IMG/VR virus record: IMGVR_UViG_3300043672_000020
Location: 1 to 40,810 of that record
DNA from: a virus
Taxonomy: Duplodnaviria > Caudoviricetes
Direction: 5' to 3' (one strand)
DNA: 40,810 nucleotides
Shown here: positions 5,115 to 36,808 of the stretch, one piece after another
Position numbering within the stretch: the stretch's first letter is position 1
Layout of the letters: each line of letters starts with the position of its first letter
Notes under the pieces: generated by a model
What the model saw: the letters and a program-made list of their open reading frames with translations, nothing else
Databases searched by the model: none
Told to the model about the DNA's origin: nothing
Program-made: the position numbers and the translations under genes

Positions 5115-6818
5115 ATGGCACTTGGACTGGCCAGCATCGACACCATGCCATCGGTCGGCAGCCCACTCTGGTGGGTGAACCGGCTCTACATCGTGCTCCA
5201 GGACCGGCGTCCCGAGATCAACAAATTCGATGACTACTACCGGGGCAATTTTCCGCTGCCGTGGCTGGCCCCACAGGCACAGGACGATTTCCGCCGGGTC
5301 CTGAAGATGAGCCGGGCCAACTACACCGGGCTCGTCATTGACGCCCAGTGCGAGCGGATGGCCGTCGAGGGGTTCTTCGTCACCGAGGACACCGACGGTG
5401 ACCCGGCCATCGACACCAAGAACGATGACCCGCTCGGCACGGACGCGGCCATGCAGCGGATCTGGCAGGCCAACAATCTGGACACCTTCTTCGACCAGGG
5501 ACTGCTGGAGGCGGCGATCACCGGCCAGTCGTACCTGATGATCGAGCGGAACCTGAAGGACCCCAAGACCCCACGCATCTACGTCGAGCATTCGTCGCAG
5601 GTGGTGATCGCGTTCAAGCCGGGCAGCAACCGGCGGGAGGCGCTGGCGGCGCTGAAGGTCTGGACCGACGAATGGACCGGGCAGATCTTCGCGACCCTGT
5701 TCCTGGAGAAGTCGATCCACAAGTACCAGACGAACCAGAACGATGGCGCGGCGTTCCGGTCCCAGGACCCGTCCGGGATCTTCGACAACCGGCTGATGCC
5801 GATCTGGGACCTGCGGCAGGTGCAGAACCAATCGTCGGAGGGACCCAACCTTCTCGGGTTCGTCCCGATCTTCGAGTTGCCGAACAACCCCCGGCTGCTG
5901 ACCGGCGGGCAGTCGGAGATCTACGACCTGACCGACACCCAGGACCGGATCGTCAAGACCATCGTCGACCGGATGATGACCCAGGACTATGGGGCGTTCC
6001 CGCAGAAGTGGGCCAGCGGATGGCCGGAGGAGGACGGGAACGGCAACCCGACCGCGCCGATCGAGGTGGGCCGCGATCGGATCATCACCACGGAGGTCCA
6101 GGAGACCCGGTTCGGCCAGTTCACGGCGGCTGACATCGCCGGATACATCGCTGCCAAGCAGGATGATGTGGTGGACATGGCCAGCCGGTCCCGGACCCCG
6201 GCCCAGTACCTGCTCGGCAGCATGAACAACGTGAACGGCGACACCCTGAAGGCGTCCGAGTCCGGCCTGGTCGCGAAGGTCCGGCAGCGGATGCGTGGCC
6301 ACAACGACCCGCTGGAGAACGCGATGATGCGGGTGCGTGAACTGGCCGGGCTCCCGATCGGTCCCGGCGTCAACATCGAGGTCGTCTGGCGTAACCCGGA
6401 GTTCCGCACCGAAGGCGAACTGGTGGACGCCCTGCTGAAGATGGCCGACCTGGGGGTGCCGGAGGAGGCGCTGTGGGGCCGCTGGGGTGCCACCCCGGAA
6501 GAGGTGCGCCGCTGGAAGGCCATGCTGGAGGACAAGATGAAGCGGGCCGCCGCCGGGGACGCCACCGTCATCCTCGCCGAGCGCTACCGGGCCGCCGCCG
6601 CCGCACCCGCCGAAGCCGAAGCCGCCGCCGCAGCAGCGGAGAAGGTCGCCAGGGCGAAAGCCAATGGTGGCGGTACGAACGACAAGGGCACACAGCCCGG
6701 CCAGCCCAGGGGCACGCGAGGCCCGGGGAACGCCCGGACCGGCGGTCAATCCGGCGGCAACGCCCGTTCCTCGTCGTCCAAGCGCCGCGCTGACGCACCG
6801 AAGCCGAGTACCACGTGA
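5115..6818 (+). CDS. portal protein (SPP1 gp6-like)
   Basis: RANYTGLVIDAQCERM, IWQANNLD, NPLG-like NLLGFVPIFELPN, FPQKW, LKASESGLVAKV motifs; position after terL; AGGAG RBS. Confidence 0.92.
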   Translation: MALGLASIDTMPSVGSPLWWVNRLYIVLQDRRPEINKFDDYYRGNFPLPWLAPQAQDDFRRVLKMSRANYTGLVIDAQCERMAVEGFFVTEDTDGDPAIDTKNDDPLGTDAAMQRIWQANNLDTFFDQGLLEAAITGQSYLMIERNLKDPKTPRIYVEHSSQVVIAFKPGSNRREALAALKVWTDEWTGQIFATLFLEKSIHKYQTNQNDGAAFRSQDPSGIFDNRLMPIWDLRQVQNQSSEGPNLLGFVPIFELPNNPRLLTGGQSEIYDLTDTQDRIVKTIVDRMMTQDYGAFPQKWASGWPEEDGNGNPTAPIEVGRDRIITTEVQETRFGQFTAADIAGYIAAKQDDVVDMASRSRTPAQYLLGSMNNVNGDTLKASESGLVAKVRQRMRGHNDPLENAMMRVRELAGLPIGPGVNIEVVWRNPEFRTEGELVDALLKMADLGVPEEALWGRWGATPEEVRRWKAMLEDKMKRAAAGDATVILAERYRAAAAAPAEAEAAAAAAEKVARAKANGGGTNDKGTQPGQPRGTRGPGNARTGGQSGGNARSSSSKRRADAPKPSTT

Positions 6819-8797
6819 CCACTGAGACCGGCGCACCGGCCAGTACCCGGCAGGCGCAGGTCCTGCTGGCGGCGGCGGCCGAGTATCAGGCCGGGCAGGA
6901 AGCGGAGCGCCGGAAGATGATCGCCGCCGTGATGGCGGTCTGGGCGGTGCTGGACATGAAACAGGTGTGGCCGTCGTGGACGATCGGTGGGCTGGGGTCC
7001 AGGATTTACCTGCTGCTGTCGGCGCTGATGGAACTGGTCGCCGCCGACGCGAACGGCTACGTGCGCAAGACGCTCGCCGATCAGGGTCTGCTGTATCTGG
7101 GGCCGGACATCAACCCGCTGAATTTCGCGGGGGTCGCCTCTGATGGCCGGGATCTGGAGACGCTACTGCGGGGCGCGATCATCAAAGTCCGGGAGGCTCA
7201 GCGGAAAGGCATGTCGGACGAGGCGGCCCGTGAGCGGGGTCGCCAGTTCCTGGAACTGGTGCTGAAGACCCAGATCGCTGACGCGGCGCGGGCGGCTGAG
7301 TCGGTCAGCATCACCGTGGCGGACCCGGAGACACCGGCCGGGAAGAAGGTGATGGTCGGGTTCGTGCGGATGCTGACGCCCCCGTCGTGCGGGCGCTGTG
7401 CCGTCCTGGCCGGGAAGTTCTACCGCTGGAACTCCGGCTTCCTTCGACACCCCCAGTGCTTCCCGGCGGGGACGGTCGTCTCAGGACCGAAGATCGAGGC
7501 GGCCACGCGGCGGTGGTTTGAGGGAGAACTCGTAACGATCCACACGGCCAGCGGCCAGGAGTTCTCCGTCACCGGAAATCACCCGATACTCACGGACGGC
7601 GGCTGGGTTCCGGCTCGCCTCCTGGTGGAAGGCGGCAACGTAGTCCGCAGCCTTGGCGTTCGCTCGGCGTTCGGACATGTCCCAGACGATCACCAGGTGC
7701 CAGCCCGCGTCGAGGATGTCTTTCGTGCGCTGAACGTGACGTCCAGCGTTAGTCGTATGCCAGTTGCCGCCGAAGATTTCCACGGCGACGGGTTCGGCAG
7801 CGAGGTCGACGTTGTATCGGCCGACGGCCTTCTGGGGGACGGTAGTCAACCCCCGCTTCTGAAGACGATCGAAGAACCGTCGTTCCCCCTGGGAGCCGAA
7901 GGATCCAACTCGTTCACGATTGAGCGCGGCGCGGAAAAGCGACTCATCGCTGTGGGTGGATCCGCGAGCAGCGTCATGAGCGGCAGCGGCTTGGGCCAGT
8001 CGCTGGTCAGCAGTCATTTTGGCAGCGCGCACGAGGCCAGCATCCGAGTGGCTGCGGATCTGCACACCGTGCTCCAGGAGGCGCGTGCGCAGGGTGCCAC
8101 GGCTGACCTGGTACTCGCGGCCGAGTGCATACTCACTCTCGCCAGCCGCATACTTCGCCGCGATCTCAGCGACCGGAAGTTCGATGGAGCGAGGCCGGGA
8201 AGCCATTTCTCCACGTCGCGGTGGGATGCTCCGGCTGGCGCGTTTACGATGGAAAGCGCGAACGGTTACGCCGAGTCGGGACGCGATCTGTTCCACCGGC
8301 TCACCGGCCAGGTAGCGTTTGATCGCATCGTCGTAAAGAGGAGTCGGGACTGGAGCGGTCATGTTTACAACCTGACATCGTCGGAGGGGTGGTTCACTGC
8401 CGAGTCCATTATAGTCTCAAACTGCGATTGCCACCACGTGCCTGTCACCCTGGCCGGGTCGAACGAGATCCTTACCAACCCGGACGTTTACTTCCAGTCC
8501 CTGACCGAACAGGAGCAGAACGACCTGTTCGGGAAGGCGCAGGCACAGGCGATCCGCGACGGCGGCGACATCAGCCAGGTCGTGAACAGCGCGCGGACGG
8601 CCGGGTCGATGTTCACCGCCGATAACGGGAAGCGCTACACGAACGAGGGGACGACGAAACGGGGCTTCGCTCGCGGTGTTGCTGGCCGGGTTCTTCGCCC
8701 TACCGTCTGGCAGATCTACAAGGACGCCGACGGCGATAAAGAGGCGGCGATCGAAGCGTTGCGGAAATTCGGTTTCATCATGCCGGACACTCGTTGA
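6815..8797 (+). CDS. MuF-like minor head / head morphogenesis protein, intein-interrupted
   Basis: Follows portal with GTGA overlap. VRMLTPPSCGRCAVLAG...GFLRHPQ and CDCHHVP are the two halves of the conserved HPxCDC motif, split by a 322-aa insertion. Confidence 0.88.
   Translation: MTTETGAPASTRQAQVLLAAAAEYQAGQEAERRKMIAAVMAVWAVLDMKQVWPSWTIGGLGSRIYLLLSALMELVAADANGYVRKTLADQGLLYLGPDINPLNFAGVASDGRDLETLLRGAIIKVREAQRKGMSDEAARERGRQFLELVLKTQIADAARAAESVSITVADPETPAGKKVMVGFVRMLTPPSCGRCAVLAGKFYRWNSGFLRHPQCFPAGTVVSGPKIEAATRRWFEGELVTIHTASGQEFSVTGNHPILTDGGWVPARLLVEGGNVVRSLGVRSAFGHVPDDHQVPARVEDVFRALNVTSSVSRMPVAAEDFHGDGFGSEVDVVSADGLLGDGSQPPLLKTIEEPSFPLGAEGSNSFTIERGAEKRLIAVGGSASSVMSGSGLGQSLVSSHFGSAHEASIRVAADLHTVLQEARAQGATADLVLAAECILTLASRILRRDLSDRKFDGARPGSHFSTSRWDAPAGAFTMESANGYAESGRDLFHRLTGQVAFDRIVVKRSRDWSGHVYNLTSSEGWFTAESIIVSNCDCHHVPVTLAGSNEILTNPDVYFQSLTEQEQNDLFGKAQAQAIRDGGDISQVVNSARTAGSMFTADNGKRYTNEGTTKRGFARGVAGRVLRPTVWQIYKDADGDKEAAIEALRKFGFIMPDTR
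7481..8362 (-). CDS. HTH-repeat + Vsr/DUF559-like PD-(D/E)xK endonuclease encoded antisense within the intein
   Basis: Two HTH-like units (YLAGEPVEQIASRLGV; YAAGESEYALGREYQVSRGTLRTRL) followed by S..E..F...L...G....Q..VGRYNVDLA..PVAVEIFGGNWH...R...ILDAGWHLVIVW. Confidence 0.82.
   Translation of the reverse strand: MTAPVPTPLYDDAIKRYLAGEPVEQIASRLGVTVRAFHRKRASRSIPPRRGEMASRPRSIELPVAEIAAKYAAGESEYALGREYQVSRGTLRTRLLEHGVQIRSHSDAGLVRAAKMTADQRLAQAAAAHDAARGSTHSDESLFRAALNRERVGSFGSQGERRFFDRLQKRGLTTVPQKAVGRYNVDLAAEPVAVEIFGGNWHTTNAGRHVQRTKDILDAGWHLVIVWDMSERRANAKAADYVAAFHQEASRNPAAVREYRVISGDGELLAAGRVDRYEFSLKPPPRGRLDLRS
8408..8413 (-). promoter_or_regulatory. candidate -10 element for the antisense endonuclease gene
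   Basis: Perfect TATAAT on the minus strand (plus strand ATTATA, formed by Ile codons ATT ATA that are rare in this GC-rich DNA), ~45 nt upstream of ATG 8362. No clear -35. Confidence 0.4.
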
Positions 8798-8932
8798 CGC
8801 CTGGTGATCGCGGATCAGATATGCTGCGTCCAGAAGTGATCACGGGCGCGATACCCAGACCACTCCCACACTTCGCCAGCGCGATGCTGGTGCGAACGGA
8901 CGGCGCGAGGCCGTCAGACCCAAGGAGAACGC

Positions 8933-9601
8933 ATGATGCTGTCCCCGTTCGATCCGCTCGGTTTCCGTCTGGATGGTCGCCCGTTCTGGGGCTTCTCCGG
9001 CGCCGAAGGTGAAGAGGGCGGTGACGGTGGTGATCCGGACGGCGACGGGGACCCCGTTGTCGAGAAGGATCCCGTCAAGGTTCTGGAATCGACACTGGCC
9101 AAGGTGCGCCTGGAGCGCAAGGCGGCTCAGGATGAATTCCGGCCCTACAAGGCGACATTGCGTGAACTTGGGATCGACTCCCCGGACAAGTTGAAGGACC
9201 TGCTCGGTAAGGGAGCCGCTGGCGCCTCGGGCACCGGCACGCAGAACCAGGTGGACCTCGACAAGGTGCGGGCGGATGCCCGAGCCGAAGTCCAACTGGA
9301 AGCCAACCGTGATCTCGCACTGGCCAAGGTGGAAGCCGCAGCCAAGGGACGGTTCGCTGACCCGGATGACGCGGTCGACTACTTCCGCAAGGACGTGGAT
9401 GACCTGCTCGGCCGGGATGGCAAGCCGGACAAGAACGCGATCACACGTGGGCTGGATGACCTGCTGGCCGCGAAACCGCACTGGGGTGCCAAGAAGCAGG
9501 AAGACATGTCCTTCGACGGTGGCGCCCGACAGCCCGCCGGAACGAAGCAGGACATGAATTCCTTCTTGCGCAACGCGTCCGCGCGAAAGCGCGGTCACTA
9601 G
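8933..9601 (+). CDS. capsid scaffolding protein
   Basis: Acidic/Gly-rich N-terminus, coiled-coil, FADPDDA and LLAAKPHW motifs, C-terminal DMNSFLR; directly upstream of major capsid; AAGGAG RBS. Confidence 0.85.
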   Translation: MMLSPFDPLGFRLDGRPFWGFSGAEGEEGGDGGDPDGDGDPVVEKDPVKVLESTLAKVRLERKAAQDEFRPYKATLRELGIDSPDKLKDLLGKGAAGASGTGTQNQVDLDKVRADARAEVQLEANRDLALAKVEAAAKGRFADPDDAVDYFRKDVDDLLGRDGKPDKNAITRGLDDLLAAKPHWGAKKQEDMSFDGGARQPAGTKQDMNSFLRNASARKRGH

Positions 9602-9643
9602 CGGCCCCCGGCCAGGGGGTCGCACGACCCCCAGGAGACGCAC

Positions 9644-10678
9644 GTGAAGAACCACCTACGGGAGCCCATCGGCTTCCGCTCCGACGGGCGGCCGATCTTC
9701 GGCTTCTCCGGCGGGGCCTACGACAGCCTGACGAACCGCTCGGACGTCGCACCACTGATCCCCGAGCAGGTCAGCAACGACATGCTGGGGAAGGCCACCG
9801 AAGGGTCGGCCGTCCTGGCGATGTTCCGCCGGATCCCCGTACAGGGCACCTCGCTTCGGTTCCCCATCCTGACCGCCCTCCCCATCGCCTACTGGGTCGC
9901 CGGTGACACCGGCCTCAAGCAGACGACCGAGATGGGCTGGAGCAACAAGTACCTCACGATCGAAGAGATCGCGACGATCATGCCCGTCCCGGACAACGTC
10001 ATGGAAGACGTGTCCGTGAACATCTGGGACGAGGCGCAGCCTCTCATCGTGGAGGCGATCGCCCGGGTCCTGGACGCGGCGGTCTTCTTCGGTGCGAACG
10101 CCCCGGCGTCCTTCCCGACGAACATCATCGCGGCTGCGGCTGCGGCCACCAACTTCGTGGCCACCCCCACCGCCACCGCTGCTCAGGGTGGGTTCATGGG
10201 CGACCTGGACTCCCTGATCGGCATCGTGGAGGAGGACGGGTACGACATCACCGGCTACCTCTCCCCGATCACCACCCGTTCGCGGTTCCGTAAGGTCCGT
10301 GACACCACCGGCCAGAAGGCCGATCCCGGCCGTGTCGGTGGCGACCTGCGGTCTGTCGACGGCGTTCCGATCATGTACCCGATGCGTGGGATGTTCCCGG
10401 TGGCCGGTGGCCCCGGCGTGAACGGTGTCGCTCTCATCGGCGGCGCGTGGGACCAGTTCGTGGTCGGCGTGAAGTCGGGGATCGAGTACAAGTTGATCAC
10501 CGAGGGCGTCATCACTGACGACCAGGGCAACATCGTGTACAACCTGCCGCAACAGGACATGCAGGCGCTGCGGCTCAAGTTCCGGATCGGCTGGCAGGTC
10601 GCCAACACGATCAACAACGACAACCCGACCGAGAACACGCGTTACCCGGTCGGCTACCTCCGGACGGTGGGCGCATAA
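9644..10678 (+). CDS. major capsid protein (HK97 fold)
   Basis: LIPEQVS, AYWVAGDTGLKQTT, EEIATIMPVP, NLPQQDMQALR motifs; size and position. Confidence 0.92.
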   Translation: MKNHLREPIGFRSDGRPIFGFSGGAYDSLTNRSDVAPLIPEQVSNDMLGKATEGSAVLAMFRRIPVQGTSLRFPILTALPIAYWVAGDTGLKQTTEMGWSNKYLTIEEIATIMPVPDNVMEDVSVNIWDEAQPLIVEAIARVLDAAVFFGANAPASFPTNIIAAAAAATNFVATPTATAAQGGFMGDLDSLIGIVEEDGYDITGYLSPITTRSRFRKVRDTTGQKADPGRVGGDLRSVDGVPIMYPMRGMFPVAGGPGVNGVALIGGAWDQFVVGVKSGIEYKLITEGVITDDQGNIVYNLPQQDMQALRLKFRIGWQVANTINNDNPTENTRYPVGYLRTVGA

Positions 10679-29514: not shown

Positions 29515-29790
29515 ATGAAGTTGCTCATCGCCGCACAGCCCACCATCGACCTGGAGTCGGGGGTGACCTGGATCAAGGGATTCCTGCTGCTCCTGGTCAT
29601 GTGCGCCCTGGTCTACCTGGCCCTGAAGGGCCTGCTCCGGCACGGCCAGAACGGTGACTACTCCAGTGCGATCTCCATGGTCGGCGCCAGCATGATCTGC
29701 CTGGTCCTGGTGGCCATGGCGGGCGGGGTGGCCGTCTTCACCGGCTACGGCAGCGCGGTCCTCGGGGCGATCACCAAGATCCTGTCGTGA
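29515..29790 (+). CDS. small 2-TM protein, pilin/VirB2-like (TcpD-like) by size and position
   Basis: 91 aa, two long hydrophobic helices; first gene of the operon containing the VirB4-like ATPase. Confidence 0.55.
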   Translation: MKLLIAAQPTIDLESGVTWIKGFLLLLVMCALVYLALKGLLRHGQNGDYSSAISMVGASMICLVLVAMAGGVAVFTGYGSAVLGAITKILS

Positions 29791-30479
29791 AGCAGATCGC
29801 CGACGACCCTGGACGGCAGATCCGCAGCCCATACCTCGGGCCGGTGAACATGCGCTTCCCCTTCGACTGGACCCTGTCCGAGATGGGACTGGCGTTCATC
29901 GTGCTGCTGTTCGGCACGGGCCTGCTGGTGTTCGTCATCCCCGCCGGGCTCGCCATCGGACTGGTGGCGCATCGCACCGCCCAGGCCGTCAGCCGGGCGA
30001 TCAACCGGGACCAGCCCCGGACCAACTACCGGATCTTCGTGGGGGCCGTGGCCGTCCTGTGTCTGCTGATCTCGTTCAACCCGATGACCTGGATCAGCCC
30101 CCTGCCCTTCCCGTTCGCCGTCCTGGCCGGGCTCGCACTGCCGATCTACGTGGTCCGCCGCAAGGGCAACTACCTGGACTGGAACCGGCCGTTCGGTTAC
30201 TGGCTGCGCCTGCCGCGTCTGGTGGCCCGTGGGCCGCGCGAACAGGCGGAGGAGGAGATGAACACCGGCCCGCTGATGCTGGGCATGGACCTGGCCGCTG
30301 CTGACCGCTCACGGGGCCTGGAGCCCGTGCTGGTCATCACTTCGGCACCCAAGGGCGGTAAGAGCCCGGTCAAACGGGCGACGCCGGTCCGGCATCAGGC
30401 CCGGCACAAGTTGATCGAGCGCACCGAGAAGGGCTTCCGCGTCGGAGCCACCGAATACCGAGTGGAGTGGACGTTCTGA
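29787..30479 (+). CDS. membrane protein, VirB3/TcpE-like by position
   Basis: YLGP...RFPF N-terminus then multiple TM segments; directly upstream of and coupled to the ATPase. Confidence 0.55.
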   Translation: MKQIADDPGRQIRSPYLGPVNMRFPFDWTLSEMGLAFIVLLFGTGLLVFVIPAGLAIGLVAHRTAQAVSRAINRDQPRTNYRIFVGAVAVLCLLISFNPMTWISPLPFPFAVLAGLALPIYVVRRKGNYLDWNRPFGYWLRLPRLVARGPREQAEEEMNTGPLMLGMDLAAADRSRGLEPVLVITSAPKGGKSPVKRATPVRHQARHKLIERTEKGFRVGATEYRVEWTF

Positions 30480-33145
30480 TGACCAGGAAAAACACCGTGC
30501 GCCCACTGGCTCCCGCAGCGAAATCCATCGTGCGCAATTTTCTCCCGCTGAAGGACGGCACCATCTGGGTCGGCTACCGGCTCGGTCCGGCCCGCTGGGA
30601 CTTCACCGGAGCGGACCCGAAGACGTCCCGGATGAGCCAGGACGCGGACGTTTTCAGCCACCTGACCGGCCGGTTCTACCATGAGCGCGTCTCCACCCGG
30701 CCGCACCCGGTGCAGGCATGGGCGCGGCAACTGGACGCCCGCACACCGCACCCGACACCCGACTTGCACACCTGTGACCTGCTGATGAGCAAGGGTGATC
30801 TACTGCGCGGCCGGTGCGGTTGCGAGACCTGGAACAGTCACCTGGTCCGCCAGCAAGTGGCCATCGCCCATTCCGGGATGGACGACAAGGTCATCTTCCG
30901 GTACTTCACCCTGAACGCCAGCGTGCCCGGCCGGTTCGACCTGCGCAGGCACCTGCTCGCTTACCTGGCCGGGGAGAAGCCGCACTCCACATTGCTTCCC
31001 GTTCTGGAGGAGGAGAAACGGGTCAATGACATCGTCAAGGGGTGGCCGGGCACGCAGCGGATGAACGAATTCGAGCAGGGCTGGCTGCGGGTGCGCTCGC
31101 TGGCGCCCGGAACGCAGCCGGGTGGCATCCAGGTCACCGGCCGGGACGGCTGGGACGAACTGGCCATCCCCGCACTGGAGAACGACACCCGCTGGGTGGA
31201 GACACCGTTCGGCCGGACCGTCACCGTCCGGACGTGGGCGGACGGAAAGCAGGCCACGACTGCCGCCCGGGTGCTGACCGTGGCCCGGCTGGGCGACCTG
31301 CACTACCCGGAGAACGGACTGCCACCGTGGCAGGTGCACGCCGAGTCGGCGGTCGACGCGAGCGGGCACCCGTTCCCGGTGGAATGGAGCATCGTCGGGC
31401 GGCTGCGCTCCGGCGGGGAAATGACCAGTGAAGTGGAACTGGACCTGCGGAAGGCGCAGTACATCGACCGCGACTACCGCAAGCACAGGGAGACGCCGCC
31501 GTCGGCCATCGCGCACGGCATCGCGGTCGCACTGCACACCCGTGACCAGGTCACCACCGGCCAGGCTACTTATGCGGCGCGGTTCCAGGGCCAGGTCAAC
31601 GTGATCATCACCGGCCGGGATCGCTACAACAGCGACGGGATCATGGTCCTGTCGGCGGCCGACGTCGTGGAGGAGCGTTGCGCCTCGTTCGCCCGGATGT
31701 ACTCCGCCGGTGGCCTGCGGATGGACTTCACCGGGGCGGACTGCCAGTCCTACATGCTCCAGTCCACCATCCCCGGTGAACCTTTCGACCGGGTCGGCTA
31801 CCAGCGGCGGCTGTCCCTGCCGTACCTGACGTCCGGGATGCCGAACGTCACCGCGAGCGTCGGCGACGGGCGCGGCCCCTACCTCGGGCATACCCGTGGC
31901 GCCAGCCGCCGCCCGGTCATGCACGACCCTCACTACGCCACGGAAGGGCTGAAGACCGGCCGGGCGCAGAACATGCACGTGATTATCTCCACACTCGGCG
32001 GTGGTAAGTCCGTGCTCATCGGCTCCATCGCCTACGGCCTGGTCCGCCGGGGCGTCACCACGATCATCAACGACCCGTCCGGTCCACTGGCCGGGCTCTG
32101 CCGCATGCCCGAAATCGCTGCCGTGTCACAGGAAGTGAACCTGCTCAACGGTCGCAAGGGCATCCTGTCCCCGCCCGGTCTGATCGCCAACCCGCACAAG
32201 GACGATTACCCGGAACCGGGTGACTGGTCCGACGCGATCGAGCAGGCCCGCTCGGAACGACGTGACCTGGTGGTGGACATGGCCCTGCAATGCCTACCGG
32301 AAGATCTGGTGGCCGAGCACGGCCCGAACGCCGAGCAGACCCGCCGGGTCCTGCGGCAGGCCGCCCGCCGATACAGCGAGCGCTCCCGCTGGGAGATGTC
32401 CTCCAGCCTGTGGGATCTGGTGGAGAGTCTGCTCAGCCTGGACAGCGAGCACGCGGACGCGGTCGCGGGCGCTCTGGTGGATGCCAGCACCGCCCCGTTG
32501 CTGCGGCTGCTGTTCCCCCCGCGCGGGGCCACGGTAGAGCCCGGCCAGTACAGCAAGACCCTCACGGTCATCACCACGCCGGGCATCGTCCGGGCCGTGG
32601 ACGGCACGCCCCGCCGTGACTGGAACCCGATGGAGATCGGCGCGGACGCCGTGCTGCGGCTGACGACGCTCTACACGAACCGGCTGATCTACAGCAAGCC
32701 ACGCGAGCAGCGGGCGGCGGTGTTCTTCGACGAAGCGGAGTCCATGACGGACTTCGGTCCAGGCCGGTCCATGCTGTCCCGGCTCGGCCGTGACCACTCC
32801 AAGTGGAACCTGGCCGTTTATCTGGCCGTGAAAAGCATCAACCCGCAGATGCTTTCGGGTGAACTGAAGAACTTCATCGCTTCCGTGTTCGTGGGCCGGA
32901 TGGCTTCGCGGGAACCGGCGCTGGAGGCTCTGCACATGCTCGGCCTGACTGATGAGCGGTACATCGACGTGCTGCTGAATCTGTCCACCCACGTGCCCGG
33001 CGAATGGGTCCACCGTGACGTGGACGGCAACGTCGGCGGCATGCGTGTGGACGTCGACTACCACCCGGTCCTGAAGGCCGCGCTGCTGACCGACCCGACA
33101 CCCGAAGGTTCATCCGACTGGGCCCTGAACGAGGAGATGCTGTGA
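30479..33145 (+). CDS. virB4: VirB4/TcpF/ConE-family conjugative ATPase
   Basis: ~888 aa; C-terminal P-loop ISTLGGGKS, INDPSG, Walker B AVFFDEAE, GRDHSKWN, FVGRM, and terminal GEWVHRDVDGNVGGMRVD. Confidence 0.82.
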   Translation: MTRKNTVRPLAPAAKSIVRNFLPLKDGTIWVGYRLGPARWDFTGADPKTSRMSQDADVFSHLTGRFYHERVSTRPHPVQAWARQLDARTPHPTPDLHTCDLLMSKGDLLRGRCGCETWNSHLVRQQVAIAHSGMDDKVIFRYFTLNASVPGRFDLRRHLLAYLAGEKPHSTLLPVLEEEKRVNDIVKGWPGTQRMNEFEQGWLRVRSLAPGTQPGGIQVTGRDGWDELAIPALENDTRWVETPFGRTVTVRTWADGKQATTAARVLTVARLGDLHYPENGLPPWQVHAESAVDASGHPFPVEWSIVGRLRSGGEMTSEVELDLRKAQYIDRDYRKHRETPPSAIAHGIAVALHTRDQVTTGQATYAARFQGQVNVIITGRDRYNSDGIMVLSAADVVEERCASFARMYSAGGLRMDFTGADCQSYMLQSTIPGEPFDRVGYQRRLSLPYLTSGMPNVTASVGDGRGPYLGHTRGASRRPVMHDPHYATEGLKTGRAQNMHVIISTLGGGKSVLIGSIAYGLVRRGVTTIINDPSGPLAGLCRMPEIAAVSQEVNLLNGRKGILSPPGLIANPHKDDYPEPGDWSDAIEQARSERRDLVVDMALQCLPEDLVAEHGPNAEQTRRVLRQAARRYSERSRWEMSSSLWDLVESLLSLDSEHADAVAGALVDASTAPLLRLLFPPRGATVEPGQYSKTLTVITTPGIVRAVDGTPRRDWNPMEIGADAVLRLTTLYTNRLIYSKPREQRAAVFFDEAESMTDFGPGRSMLSRLGRDHSKWNLAVYLAVKSINPQMLSGELKNFIASVFVGRMASREPALEALHMLGLTDERYIDVLLNLSTHVPGEWVHRDVDGNVGGMRVDVDYHPVLKAALLTDPTPEGSSDWALNEEML

Positions 33146-34965
33146 GTAAACCCGAGTTCGGCAGGATCAAACACCCGGTGTTCGCCCGTCACGAGAGCAC
33201 GAAAAGCCGGTCGCGGCGCAGGAATTCGATACTGCGGTGGACGTTCGTCTTCTGGCTGGCGGTTCTGGTGGTGTGGCTGTGCGTGGCCAGCGCCCCGAAC
33301 GCGCACGCCGCTGACGCCGGGATCGACCTGCCGGGGATCGAGGTCTGCCCGAAGGAGGCACCGTTCGCGGCCACGCCGGAGACGGGCCTGGCCGGGCTCC
33401 TGGGTGAGCGGCCGATCAGGATCACGACGGACAACTCACCCGAGCACATCTGGTCCACGGGTGGTTTCGCTGGGCTGCGCTCGCACACCTACGACCTGGG
33501 ATGCGCCATCGACCCCACGTCATGGATGCGGATCACGAACGCGTCAGCCGACTCGAAGATCGTCAATGGGATCACGGCGTTCGGTGACGGCCTGGTGTCG
33601 CTCACCGATTCGGTGGACCGGCGGGCCTGGCAGGCGGGATGGATCACCTCGTTCCTGGAGGATTTCGCCCGCCGGGCCACGGGCATCATCAACACCACCA
33701 TCGTCATCCCGTTCGTGGGCCTGGGCCTGATCATTGCCTGCATCATCCTGCTGTACCGGGCGCACGACGGTGACATCCATTCCGCCGCGACGAATGTCGG
33801 GTGGGTGTTCGTGGTGGCCACGGTCACCGGGTTCCTGCTGCTGTCACCGCTGTTCGCGTCCAAGGTCGGGCAGGTGGCCGGTGGCACACTGGTGGCGGCG
33901 CTGAACAACGGGGCCAACCCTTCCGACGCCGCGACCAACCAGGTCGTGAAAAACGTTCAGTACCAGGGGTGGCTGCGACGCAACTTCGGCAGCATCAACT
34001 CACCGGCCGGGGTGAAGTACGGACCGGATCTGCTGGCCAGCACCCGCGTCTCCTGGGCCGAACTGGATGCGATCACCGCACTCGCACCCAAGGACCAGGC
34101 GAAAGCACGCAAGGAACTGACCGAGAAGAAAGCCAGGCAGTTCAAGGACATCGCCGCGAAGGTGAAGGACGATGACCCGACGGCCTACCGGTACCTGACG
34201 GGGGAGGAACTCAGTTCCACGGAAACCCTGGTGGAGGTGGCTTTTGATTTCGCGGCCTGCTTCTTCCGGCTGGCCGTGGCCATCCTGATGATCACCTGCC
34301 GGATCACCCTGGTCCTGCTGGCGATCTTCTGGCTGGTGCTGACCCCGCTGATCATCCTGCCGCGCGTCGGGCGTCACTCCGGCCAGGAGATGGGGGTCGG
34401 CCTGTTCAACAACGCTGTCCAGGCGACCGGCTACGTGCTGGCCGCCGCCGTCGGATCCTGGCTGTTCGGGATCTACCTCCAGGCGTGCATGGCCCCGGGC
34501 ATGAGCCTGTGGTGGTCGCTGCTGCTGCTGGTCCTCGGGTCCGGCATCGCCTGGACCGTGATCCGCCCGGACCGGAAGTTCCTGTCCATCGTCAGCCTGG
34601 GCCGGATCAACGGGTACGGCTACATCGGGAGGCTCCTGAAGGGCCTGGCCCTGTCCTACATCGGTGGCCGGGTGGCCGGTGCCGCCGTCGCGAACGCTGT
34701 GGACGACCGGGAGCAGGAAACACCGGAGCGGATGTCCGAGAACGTTCCACCGGAACCGGAAGTCATCTACGCCAACATCTTCAACCCGGAAGATCCGTTC
34801 ATTGTGGACGCGGAAGCCCTGCCATCAGGGATGCCTGCCTACGAGCGCCCCACCGGCCAGCCGGACCCACCACCGGACCGGGCCGAAAGCCCGTACGAGA
34901 ACTGGTGGGAACGAGGCTGGGAACCGTACGAGCCGTCCGACGACACCGAAGGAGCACGCACATGA
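33142..34965 (+). CDS. VirB6/TcpH-like polytopic membrane protein
   Basis: Signal-like N-terminus (AHA), two TM clusters separated by an extracytoplasmic loop (YQGWLRRNFGS), acidic Pro-rich tail; follows VirB4. Confidence 0.7.
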   Translation: MSKPEFGRIKHPVFARHESTKSRSRRRNSILRWTFVFWLAVLVVWLCVASAPNAHAADAGIDLPGIEVCPKEAPFAATPETGLAGLLGERPIRITTDNSPEHIWSTGGFAGLRSHTYDLGCAIDPTSWMRITNASADSKIVNGITAFGDGLVSLTDSVDRRAWQAGWITSFLEDFARRATGIINTTIVIPFVGLGLIIACIILLYRAHDGDIHSAATNVGWVFVVATVTGFLLLSPLFASKVGQVAGGTLVAALNNGANPSDAATNQVVKNVQYQGWLRRNFGSINSPAGVKYGPDLLASTRVSWAELDAITALAPKDQAKARKELTEKKARQFKDIAAKVKDDDPTAYRYLTGEELSSTETLVEVAFDFAACFFRLAVAILMITCRITLVLLAIFWLVLTPLIILPRVGRHSGQEMGVGLFNNAVQATGYVLAAAVGSWLFGIYLQACMAPGMSLWWSLLLLVLGSGIAWTVIRPDRKFLSIVSLGRINGYGYIGRLLKGLALSYIGGRVAGAAVANAVDDREQETPERMSENVPPEPEVIYANIFNPEDPFIVDAEALPSGMPAYERPTGQPDPPPDRAESPYENWWERGWEPYEPSDDTEGART

Positions 34966-35123
34966 TGACCGAGAAGGAAGCCCACGAGGAAGTCCCCTGC
35001 CCTGGGCCGGGATGCACCAGCCGGACCGGAAGCGCCCGTCGGGGCTGCACCATCTGTGCCGGTGACGGCACCATCGAACGCTGGGTGTGGGCCAGCCTGA
35101 TCGCCGGGGAGGTGCTGCTGTGA
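34962..35123 (+). CDS. small zinc-finger protein
   Basis: ATGA overlap and AAGGAG RBS; CPGPGC...CTICAGDG. Confidence 0.65.
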   Translation: MMTEKEAHEEVPCPGPGCTSRTGSARRGCTICAGDGTIERWVWASLIAGEVLL

Positions 35124-35611
35124 TCGCGTGGCTGTTCGACAGCCCACAGCGGCTGAAGACGGTCGCGGCCGGTACCGGCGTGCTGATCGTGATCATGTTC
35201 ATCGCGTTCACCTTCAGCCGGATGCAGCACCTGCCGACCGTCCAGGCGGGTCCGGCGCCGACAGCGGAATCCACCGCCACCGGCCTCCTGCCGCCGTCTC
35301 CCGCCCCGGAGGAGGGCTCACCCCTGCCGGAGTACGGCCCGAGCGCCCCGATCGCCCTGGAGGCCGTCCAGGCATTCCTCCAGGGTGACCACGCCAAGTT
35401 CGCCCGGCTCGGCCAGCCGGAAGCCGTGGAGTCCGTGAACGAGGCGCCACAGCCACCGCCCGGCCAGCAGATCACTGGCGACGTGGAGACTCTGCTGGAC
35501 GGCCCGACCCGGCAGAAGGTGTCCGTGCCGACCACCGACGGGAACCTGGTGCTGGACATGGTCGTCGTGGACGGGGCCTGGAAAGTCATGAGCATCGAGT
35601 ACGACCGGTGA
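35120..35611 (+). CDS. bitopic membrane protein, VirB8/TcpC-like
   Basis: Single TM, Pro-rich linker, compact alpha/beta domain ending MVVVDGAWKVMSI (NTF2-like ending); GTGA overlap. Confidence 0.55.
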   Translation: MIAWLFDSPQRLKTVAAGTGVLIVIMFIAFTFSRMQHLPTVQAGPAPTAESTATGLLPPSPAPEEGSPLPEYGPSAPIALEAVQAFLQGDHAKFARLGQPEAVESVNEAPQPPPGQQITGDVETLLDGPTRQKVSVPTTDGNLVLDMVVVDGAWKVMSIEYDR

Positions 35612-35709
35612 CCCGTCGCGAGCGACGGATCCTGATCGCCCTGGCCATCGTCTACGGATCCGTGGCAGGTTTCCTGCTCGCCGCCCTGGCCTGGACGGTG
35701 ACGCGGTGA
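35608..35709 (+). CDS. 33-aa single-TM peptide (below ORF-track cutoff)
   Basis: MTRRERRILIALAIVYGSVAGFLLAALAWTVTR; GTGA overlaps at both ends. Confidence 0.6.
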   Translation: MTRRERRILIALAIVYGSVAGFLLAALAWTVTR

Positions 35710-35873
35710 AGGATCCGAACTGGAGGTGCTGGATCTGCATGAGGCCCTTGCGCTGGTGGCAGTTTCGTTTGGATCTGTGCCGTGAATGCGCCCAGCACCG
35801 TAACGATCGCAACTGGCGGCTGCATCACTACACGTCCGGAATCGACCAGCCCGCAGACACCTGGAGAGGCTAG
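35706..35873 (+). CDS. 55-aa CxxC...CxxC protein (below ORF-track cutoff)
   Basis: MKDPNWRCWICMRPLRWWQFRLDLCRECAQ...; coupled to both neighbours (GTGA, TAGTG). Confidence 0.55.
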   Translation: MKDPNWRCWICMRPLRWWQFRLDLCRECAQHRNDRNWRLHHYTSGIDQPADTWRG

Positions 35874-36808
35874 TGAAGAAGACCCTGCTGGTGCTTGCCC
35901 CCCTGGCCGGGCTTTTGACCGTTCCGGTGCTGATGCTGACGTTCCTGTCCGGCCCGCCGAAGATCCCGGGTGCCAGTCTGACCGGTGGGGAGACTGCGAA
36001 CTGCTCCGTTCCCGCGCCGACCGGTGACCTGGGGGCGTCGGCGGTCGCGGCGCACGCCTACCGGGCCGGATTCCGAGGGCAGGACGTCAACATCGCTGTG
36101 GCGGTCGCGCGAGCGGAGTCCGGCTGGGACGCCAAGGCCACTAACCGGAACGGCAACGGCTCGGTGGATTACGGGCTGATCCAGATCAACTCGGTCCATG
36201 AGGCGATCCTGGCGACCGGCAACTGGGCCGATCCCGGAGACAATATGGCCATGGCCTTCACTGTCTGGTCGGACGCCGGGAAGTCGTGGGGTCCGTGGGT
36301 GACCTACTGGTCCGGATCCTACCGACAGTACTTGACGAATGTTGACGTCCATCCGACGTGTGTGCAGCCGGTCGTCGGCACGTGTGCGGCCCCGAAAGAC
36401 CTGAGCCAGTACCAGAACGGGCTGATCCCGGCCAGTGCACTCTGCACCCTCTGGGCCGACCGTAGGCACCGTCTACGCTCGGACGCGGCCACCTCGTTCG
36501 ATGCGCTCGCGCGGGCCTACCAGCAGCACTTCGGTTCCAAGCCGTGCATCACCGACTCCTACCGGTCGCTGGCCGCACAGATCGACGTGGCCCGGCGCAA
36601 GCCCGGACTGGCCGCCCGGCCCGGCACCTCCAACCACGGCTGGGGCCTGGCACTCGACCTGGGCTGCGGGTTGCAGACAGCAGGCAGTGATCAGGATGTG
36701 TGGATGCACCAGAACGCGGAGCGGTTCGGCTGGCATCACCCCGGATGGGCTGAACCATCCGGATCGAAACCTGAAAGTTGGCACTGGGAGATGGTGGGAG
36801 CACGATGA
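35873..36808 (+). CDS. bifunctional cell-wall hydrolase: lytic transglycosylase + M15 (VanY-like) peptidase
   Basis: N-terminal signal/anchor; AVARAESG, DYGLIQIN, WGPW (lysozyme-like); DSYRS...PGTSNHGWGLALD...ESWHWE (M15 zinc peptidase). Confidence 0.88.
   Translation: MKKTLLVLAPLAGLLTVPVLMLTFLSGPPKIPGASLTGGETANCSVPAPTGDLGASAVAAHAYRAGFRGQDVNIAVAVARAESGWDAKATNRNGNGSVDYGLIQINSVHEAILATGNWADPGDNMAMAFTVWSDAGKSWGPWVTYWSGSYRQYLTNVDVHPTCVQPVVGTCAAPKDLSQYQNGLIPASALCTLWADRRHRLRSDAATSFDALARAYQQHFGSKPCITDSYRSLAAQIDVARRKPGLAARPGTSNHGWGLALDLGCGLQTAGSDQDVWMHQNAERFGWHHPGWAEPSGSKPESWHWEMVGAR

Follow-up and report, generated by a model that had tools for sequence, protein, structure and literature searches.

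Full inteins with anti-sense VSR-like endonucleases have been described in actinobacteriophages by Gosselin, Arsenault, and Gogarten (bioRxiv 10.1101/2025.01.02.630785), and minor capsid inteins are reported there to carry only non-canonical endonucleases. Dassa et al. 2009 (PMC2677866) described fractured genes in which a split intein is accompanied by a Vsr-like nuclease as a separate gene, and Arsenault et al. (PMC11855218) a hidden HNH on the same strand. The tested enzyme closest to the nuclease of the present study is I-Bth0305I, which cuts the intron-free allele next to the insertion site (Taylor et al. 2011, PMC3239194). In addition, E. coli phage Snoke and Salmonella phage LSPA1 have been reported to contain an intein in their capsid morphogenesis gene, the intein alone being named (PMC6776784).

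Here, we analyze a stretch of 40,810 nucleotides (positions 1 to 40,810 of IMG/VR virus record IMGVR_UViG_3300043672_000020; the window), in which a MuF-like head gene carries an intein and the strand opposite that intein encodes a conserved, separate Vsr-like nuclease. We consider this nuclease likely to be the homing endonuclease of the intein and assign the reading as a whole a probability of roughly 0.85.

The window intein has much in common with those of Gosselin et al.: both are contiguous, lack an in-frame nuclease, and face an opposite-strand Vsr-like ORF with a long helical N-terminal part. Against 1CW0, the Vsr-like core reported in that preprint scores Z 10.6 over residues 144-267, and ours scores Z 10.5 over 155-272 (chain residues 20-156). 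The first-pass annotation of the window had pointed to out-of-frame intein nucleases in actinophages and cautioned on novelty, rightly as it turns out. The layout is already described in the preprint, and the copy in the window thus adds an example. However, the preprint covers actinobacteriophages only, among which Gordonia phages have MuF genes containing relatives of the window intein, and its second ORFs typically lie outside the splicing domain, whereas in the window and its relatives the nuclease fold extends over splicing block B. Its main text, supplements apart, holds nothing on a promoter, ribosome site, start codon, or synonymous-site tests, and the wide host range, block B overlap, embedded signals, and fixed motif reported below are absent from it. 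A literature search, outside which fell most subscription journals and preprint supplements, likewise returned nothing on an embedded promoter or fixed motif. In the genes of Dassa et al., as in the window, the nuclease is separate, there overlapping the flanking coding region by 6-69 bp; but intein and host gene are broken in two in that system, whereas in the window they form a single 660-aa frame rather than two ORFs, with the nuclease nested opposite. The Snoke/LSPA1 intein belongs to the same family as ours; it is inserted at the same site, between HPN and CRS, and its antisense nuclease is intact, although the antisense gene is not annotated in the Snoke record.

An intein in a MuF-like head gene

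The features of the sense strand are as follows.

6815..8797, plus strand: gene for a MuF-like minor head (head morphogenesis) protein, which has 660 aa with the intein and 338 aa without
7457..8422, plus strand: intein of 322 aa inserted between HPQ and CDC, identified by the intein-free allele L256, Pfam Intein_splicing, and a predicted Hint fold
7571..7582, plus strand: splicing block B, T-G-N-H (T39, H42), whose bases also encode part of the C-terminal beta-hairpin of the nuclease
7691..7741, plus strand: intein residues 79-95, which form a strand and helix in the confidently modeled part of the splicing domain and lie opposite nuclease residues 208-224
8357..8425, plus strand: splicing blocks F and G (GHVYNL ... 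SIIVSN) and the +1 Cys

The window derives from a GC-rich (65%) tailed-phage genome with the usual order of terminase, portal, MuF-like gene, scaffold, and major capsid, the MuF-like gene being flanked by the portal gene (5115-6818) and by scaffold/major capsid. The product of this gene matches PHROGs 1522 and 15127, labeled head maturation protease, and the names given to its homologues are capsid maturation protease or MuF-like minor capsid protein. These names, like the synteny and the motif, fit a minor capsid protein (IPR006528), while the exteins have no match in Pfam or NCBIfam. Elsewhere in the window, a free-standing HNH endonuclease gene (32-760) lies upstream of the packaging genes, and past the lysis genes a block (29787-36808) resembles a conjugation module. 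It encodes a TcpF/VirB4-like ATPase (AAA_10, E 3e-17) and a protein with SLT and M15 peptidase domains, together with a protein of 607 aa that belongs to no clear family. The contig may be a prophage adjoining, or fused to, a conjugative element.

The first-pass annotation proposed that the head gene is split at HPQ-CDC by a 322-aa insert with intein blocks and a terminal SN/C, and sequence comparison establishes this insert. L256, an intein-free allele of 338 aa, aligns at 90% over residues 1-215 and at 84% over 536-660; HPQ-CDC is unbroken in it, so that the insert is exactly 322 aa long. The site was empty in all 55 loci found with the N-extein, four of which are 87-88% identical to the window in DNA. 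Of the 79 loci parsed in this analysis, 17 gave partial parses and 2 none, all of them with opposite frames of at least 415 aa.

The window intein has Cys1, T39-x-x-H42, G-H-V-Y-N-L, the terminal S-N, and the +1 Cys, and C1, T39, H42, and N322 are invariant across 61 aligned inteins. A penultimate His is common, not universal, in class 1 inteins; here it is replaced by Ser321, and H-N and S-N ends are both frequent in the family. Block F has Asn where Asp is usual. Pfam recognizes Intein_splicing alone (E 3e-4), intein HMM scores lying below curated cut-offs. The model of the sense protein, built from a 61-sequence alignment, is confident at residues 1-65, about 80-95, and 285-322, with a pLDDT of 94 at residues 81-90 and a helix at 85-95. 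Comparison of this model with Hint domains gave Z values of 12.7-12.0, with an rmsd of 1.4-3.0 over 106-111 residues, the best match being hedgehog, tied with inteins.

The central part of the sense frame had been taken for shadow sequence without an endonuclease of its own. For the most part this stands: residues 124-266 have a pLDDT mostly below 50, with no confident fold and no nuclease match, and neither Pfam nor fold comparison recognizes an in-frame nuclease within the intein. It does not stand at residues 79-95, which are confidently modeled, nor at residues 106-112, which are constrained.

A predicted Vsr-like nuclease on the opposite strand

The opposite strand contains the following.

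7481..8362, minus strand: gene of the 293-aa nuclease, its codons exactly in register with those of the intein
8072..8344, minus strand: two helix-turn-helix units (residues 7-97), the predicted DNA-binding part (Pfam HTH_23, HTH_7, HTH_58)
7544..7900, minus strand: Vsr/DUF559-like nuclease domain (residues 155-273) with conserved E160, D186, E195, H202, and R212

The earlier claim that this strand encodes two helix-turn-helix units and a Vsr-like nuclease is well supported. Apart from the Pfam matches, the helix-turn-helix helices have pLDDT values of 94-97 and a profile match to 2lvs (E 1e-5); PF18741 matches the antisense protein at E 1.7e-6, below the curated cut-off. The antisense model (113-sequence alignment; mean pLDDT, 91.8) predicts two three-helix units, three linker helices, and then an alpha/beta domain that ends with helix 236-251 and strands 258-263 and 268-273. 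Among 48,161 chains, its top three matches were Vsr (1cw0), I-Bth0305I (3r3p), and 3hrl (Z 9.5). Foldseek against the PDB gave nothing at an E of 0.001 or below for either the antisense or the sense model, the top rows being Vsr/I-Bth0305I and inteins, respectively. A nuclease dimer prediction scored 0.03 and gave no usable model.

I-Bth0305I and the window nuclease share N-terminal repeated DNA-binding units and a C-terminal Vsr-like domain, the former enzyme residing in a group I intron and the latter in an intein (PMC3239194). The match to our model has Z 9.9 and an rmsd of 2.5 over 92 residues, at 14-18% identity. Residues E160, D186, E195, H202, and R212 are 92-100% conserved in 72 inteins and intact in the window. 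The spacing of E160, D186, and H202 corresponds to the EDxHD motif, a mapping that we infer from sequence spacing; no conserved Asp occurs 7-13 residues past H202, where the last D would fall, in the 72 inteins. The active site of I-Bth0305I includes D196, H213, and D222 (PMC3239194); in the window nuclease, Glu195 is invariant, and no residue clearly corresponds to D222. As a class, EDxHD homing endonucleases form homodimers and cleave empty alleles at the site of insertion.

It had also been pointed out that both frames stay open for 882 nt. The ORFs of both strands are indeed as described, but the openness of the minus strand by itself is at chance level in this 65% GC genome: across ten ordinary genes of the window, the same antisense register was open in 113 of 335 windows of 294 codons, and we rejected it as evidence. 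Because open antisense frames are so common by chance, the case for the nuclease rests on homology, fold, and selection.

Selection on two frames that share codons

Strand conservation was assessed in 72 non-redundant inteins, the window included and nine near-duplicates dropped. Whichever frame was aligned, conservation was higher in the sense frame at both ends of the intein (residues 1-60 and 301-322) and higher in the antisense frame in between (61-300). Mean identities (sense/antisense) were 0.50/0.30 at residues 41-60, 0.18/0.37 at 161-180, and 0.46/0.26 at 301-320. In relatives, then, the antisense frame is intact and, over the center, the better conserved one, the opposite of the disruption that the first-pass annotation had named as a refutation.

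Stop codons point the same way. In 127 non-redundant inteins, with expectations taken from the exteins of each gene, 2 antisense stops were seen over the nuclease region against 739 expected. None of the 800 Leu/Ser codons at intein residues 30-66 creates an antisense stop (102 expected), and there was a single one at 67-100 (81 expected) and another in the center (556 expected). Toward the intein start, counts were 36 against 39 expected at residues 11-29 and 106 against 34 at residues 1-10. It follows that the nuclease is kept open through block B and ends near the intein start. In four relatives (L018, L025, L027, and L038), the nuclease frame passes the first codon of the intein and stops 0-7 codons into the N-extein.

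These comparisons demonstrate selection on each strand, although the relatives share ancestry and counts across inteins are not independent events. They also agree with the proposal that the C terminus of the nuclease overlaps the N-terminal splicing region. In the models, the last helix and hairpin of the nuclease sit over block B, and as the intein model is confident to about residue 95, the two predicted folds share some 66 codons, intein residues 30-95 corresponding to nuclease residues 273-208. By these models, the locus offers an uncomplicated natural example of antiparallel codons shared between two folded enzymes.

Predicted nuclease expression signals within the splicing blocks

Separate expression of the nuclease was assessed from two features within blocks F and G.

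8360..8373, minus strand: nuclease ATG, which lies opposite the His codon CAT of block F, with a weak ribosome-binding site AGGT (8373-8370)
8408..8413, minus strand: TATAAT, a predicted -10 box of the nuclease gene, made by the block G Ile codons ATT ATA

Codon choice in the same set of 127 inteins is biased accordingly. The block F His is CAT in 74 of 92 inteins, a codon choice seen for 39% of His in exteins and in 32 of 127 inteins at block B, and the Leu of VY(N/D)L is CTC (antisense GAG) in 93 of 114, compared with 24% in exteins. GGAG, GAGG, or AGGA lies upstream of 69 of 99 nuclease starts; most of the family has GAGG or GGAGG, and the AGGT of the window is weaker. A -10-like hexamer occurs within the last eight intein codons in 83 of 127 inteins, whereas synonymous recoding gave a mean of 27 and a maximum of 37; the figures are 52 of 74 against 11 for high-GC genes, and 7 against 26 for block B as a control. 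In the window, ATA accounts for none of the 14 Ile codons in the extein sample. A sigma-70 scan of positions 7300-9700 reported neither promoter nor terminator, and no -35 box is found in the window at 16-18 nt from the -10 box; a GTGGCA hexamer lies 15 nt before it, outside the spacing of the scan. The family has no convincing -35 consensus, and we do not claim a -35 box. Taken together, the -10 box, ribosome site, and ATG lend sequence support to the earlier proposal that the nuclease can be expressed independently of the late head operon.

A fixed sense motif over the nuclease core

One short stretch is constrained beyond the needs of the nuclease.

7772..7792, plus strand: sense-frame motif E-D-F-H-G-D-G, over the central strand of the nuclease

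Nuclease codons 191-194 read H-G-D-G in the sense frame, and their four-fold wobble bases are fixed in 100, 98, 97, and 98% of 68, 42, 68, and 61 informative inteins, respectively. Control wobble positions at codons 198, 199, and 203-206 reach 33-49%, over a range of 39-67% GC. RNA structure was rejected as the cause: the mean folding z was -0.04 for both strands in 40 of the 72 inteins, like that of three control windows. A motif of the sense protein fits the pattern, in which third positions are free; a DNA site may also be responsible.

Distribution and mobility of the family

By estimate, some 680 to 1,100 stretches in IMG/VR match, mostly unannotated. We fetched 84 loci with the nuclease as a query (69 from IMG/VR, 12 GenBank phages chosen from 124 records, and 3 genomes), of which 83 faced an opposite-strand frame that was long, open, and in matching codon register; the exception was Acinetobacter phage IME285 (see below). 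Of the 83, 80 parse as complete inteins before C-x-x (nearly always C-x-C) at a MuF-type site; of the other three, two run off their contigs and one (L020) has no recognizable intein start. Conversely, all 80 loci fetched with a sense alignment had a nuclease-core match on the opposite strand, in a search biased on nuclease-less inteins because one of its two patterns is the shadow of the nuclease core; re-parsing of these loci left 55 non-redundant complete inteins. The family is found in phages of Gordonia, Salmonella, E. coli, Klebsiella, Pseudomonas, Cronobacter, Vibrio, Aggregatibacter, and Idiomarina. Stops occur inside the nuclease match of L017 and L026, which together with L020 (near 897-915) possibly represent decay.

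Among close phages, the spread of the intein is patchy and incongruent, as sequence comparison shows for Snoke. In the Guernseyvirinae, 70 of 497 records match more than 80% of the Snoke gene, and most others listed match the exteins only. The inteins of Snoke and vB_StyS-sam are 95.7% identical and the exteins 67.6% and 79.6%; among the eight alleles compared, two Salmonella phages have inteins that match that of Snoke at 95.7-95.8% identity, with exteins at 68-81%, whereas the Snoke exteins are 91-92% identical to the empty allele of E. coli phage fFiEco03. Snoke and sidste are 93% identical over the last 60 nt of the N-extein and 72% further out. For the intein of the window itself no close copy was found, the nearest being about 47-50% identical in the sense and 54-57% in the antisense frame, and recent movement is thus shown for relatives rather than for the window copy. 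In the empty alleles L253-L255, the first 30 nt past the site are 50-60% identical to the window, compared with 80-100% further on, which reflects either target-site escape or co-conversion in the window.

A free-standing relative of the nuclease occurs in Acinetobacter phage IME285 (L077, 455-1348 on the plus and 1342-2118 on the minus strand), convergent with an intein-free MuF gene and with its end about 50 nt from the MuF C-K-C codons; the records of BUCT629 and P1068 hold an identical protein. There are no splicing blocks antisense to it. In a quick unrooted tree of 73 nuclease rows, the IME285 protein groups, on a long branch, with the intein copies of Aaphi23 and Klebsiella (SH-aLRT 96), a lead suggesting that it may have arisen by intein loss. 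It is possible that it represents a precursor or an escapee of the intein form.

Alternative explanations and a proposed mechanism

Conceivably, the nuclease is active but mainly damages or excludes competing phages, the copying of the intein being a side effect. That the nuclease can persist without an intein, as in IME285, is what this explanation would predict. Yet intein sequences resemble one another much more closely than the surrounding exteins do, and a tract suggestive of co-conversion is present, which is a mark of copying; moreover, the element is confined to one site across very different phages, which makes competitor exclusion as the main effect improbable. Even less credible is an inactive relic in the window, open only through GC content and the intein frame: the frequency of open antisense frames and the lack of a close intein copy speak for it, but the catalytic candidates E160 to R212 are all in place, and the window retains both the TATAAT with its rare codon and the CAT start. 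In addition, empty extein alleles at 87-88% identity imply that the insert arrived, or was lost, after the split, which counts against a relic. That the insert is not protein-spliced, being a cleaving Hint domain or handled at the RNA level, finds some room in the low intein HMM scores, the tied hedgehog match, and the missing penultimate His but is very unlikely, given that Cys1, TxxH, the terminal Asn, and the +1 Cys are invariant or nearly so, that removal restores a conserved motif exactly, and that both ends are under protein-level selection.

For an intein with an opposite-strand homing nuclease, we propose the following sequence of events. The late head transcript would yield a precursor of 660 aa. 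Its Hint domain, made up of residues 1-95 and about 286-322, would splice itself out via Cys1, His42, Asn322, and the +1 Cys, so that the CxxC...HPQ-CDC protein is restored, while the middle, some 170 residues, loops out as a passenger. On the other strand, the block G -10 box would serve host RNA polymerase for transcription of the nuclease gene, and translation would begin at the block F ATG. When another phage co-infects the cell, the two helix-turn-helix units and the nuclease domain might then cleave its H-P-x-C-x-C coding DNA where this is uninterrupted, and the element would be copied in as the break is repaired from the intein allele, by analogy with I-Bth0305I (PMC3239194). As its signals lie in blocks F and G and the C-terminal part of its fold lies over block B, the nuclease gene would not easily be separated from the intein, and this would explain why relatives keep both almost universally.

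More tentatively, and at somewhat below even odds in our estimate, the locus may be viewed as an interlocked two-enzyme gene in which block B codons are shared, nuclease signals are lodged in blocks G and F, and E-D-F-H-G-D-G serves a third function, either as a splicing-control site, for example, through metal binding, or as an operator by which the nuclease regulates itself. The fixed motif is explained by neither known function of the two enzymes. Since both filled and empty alleles occur in E. coli phages that can be cultured, homing by an antisense nuclease is directly testable.
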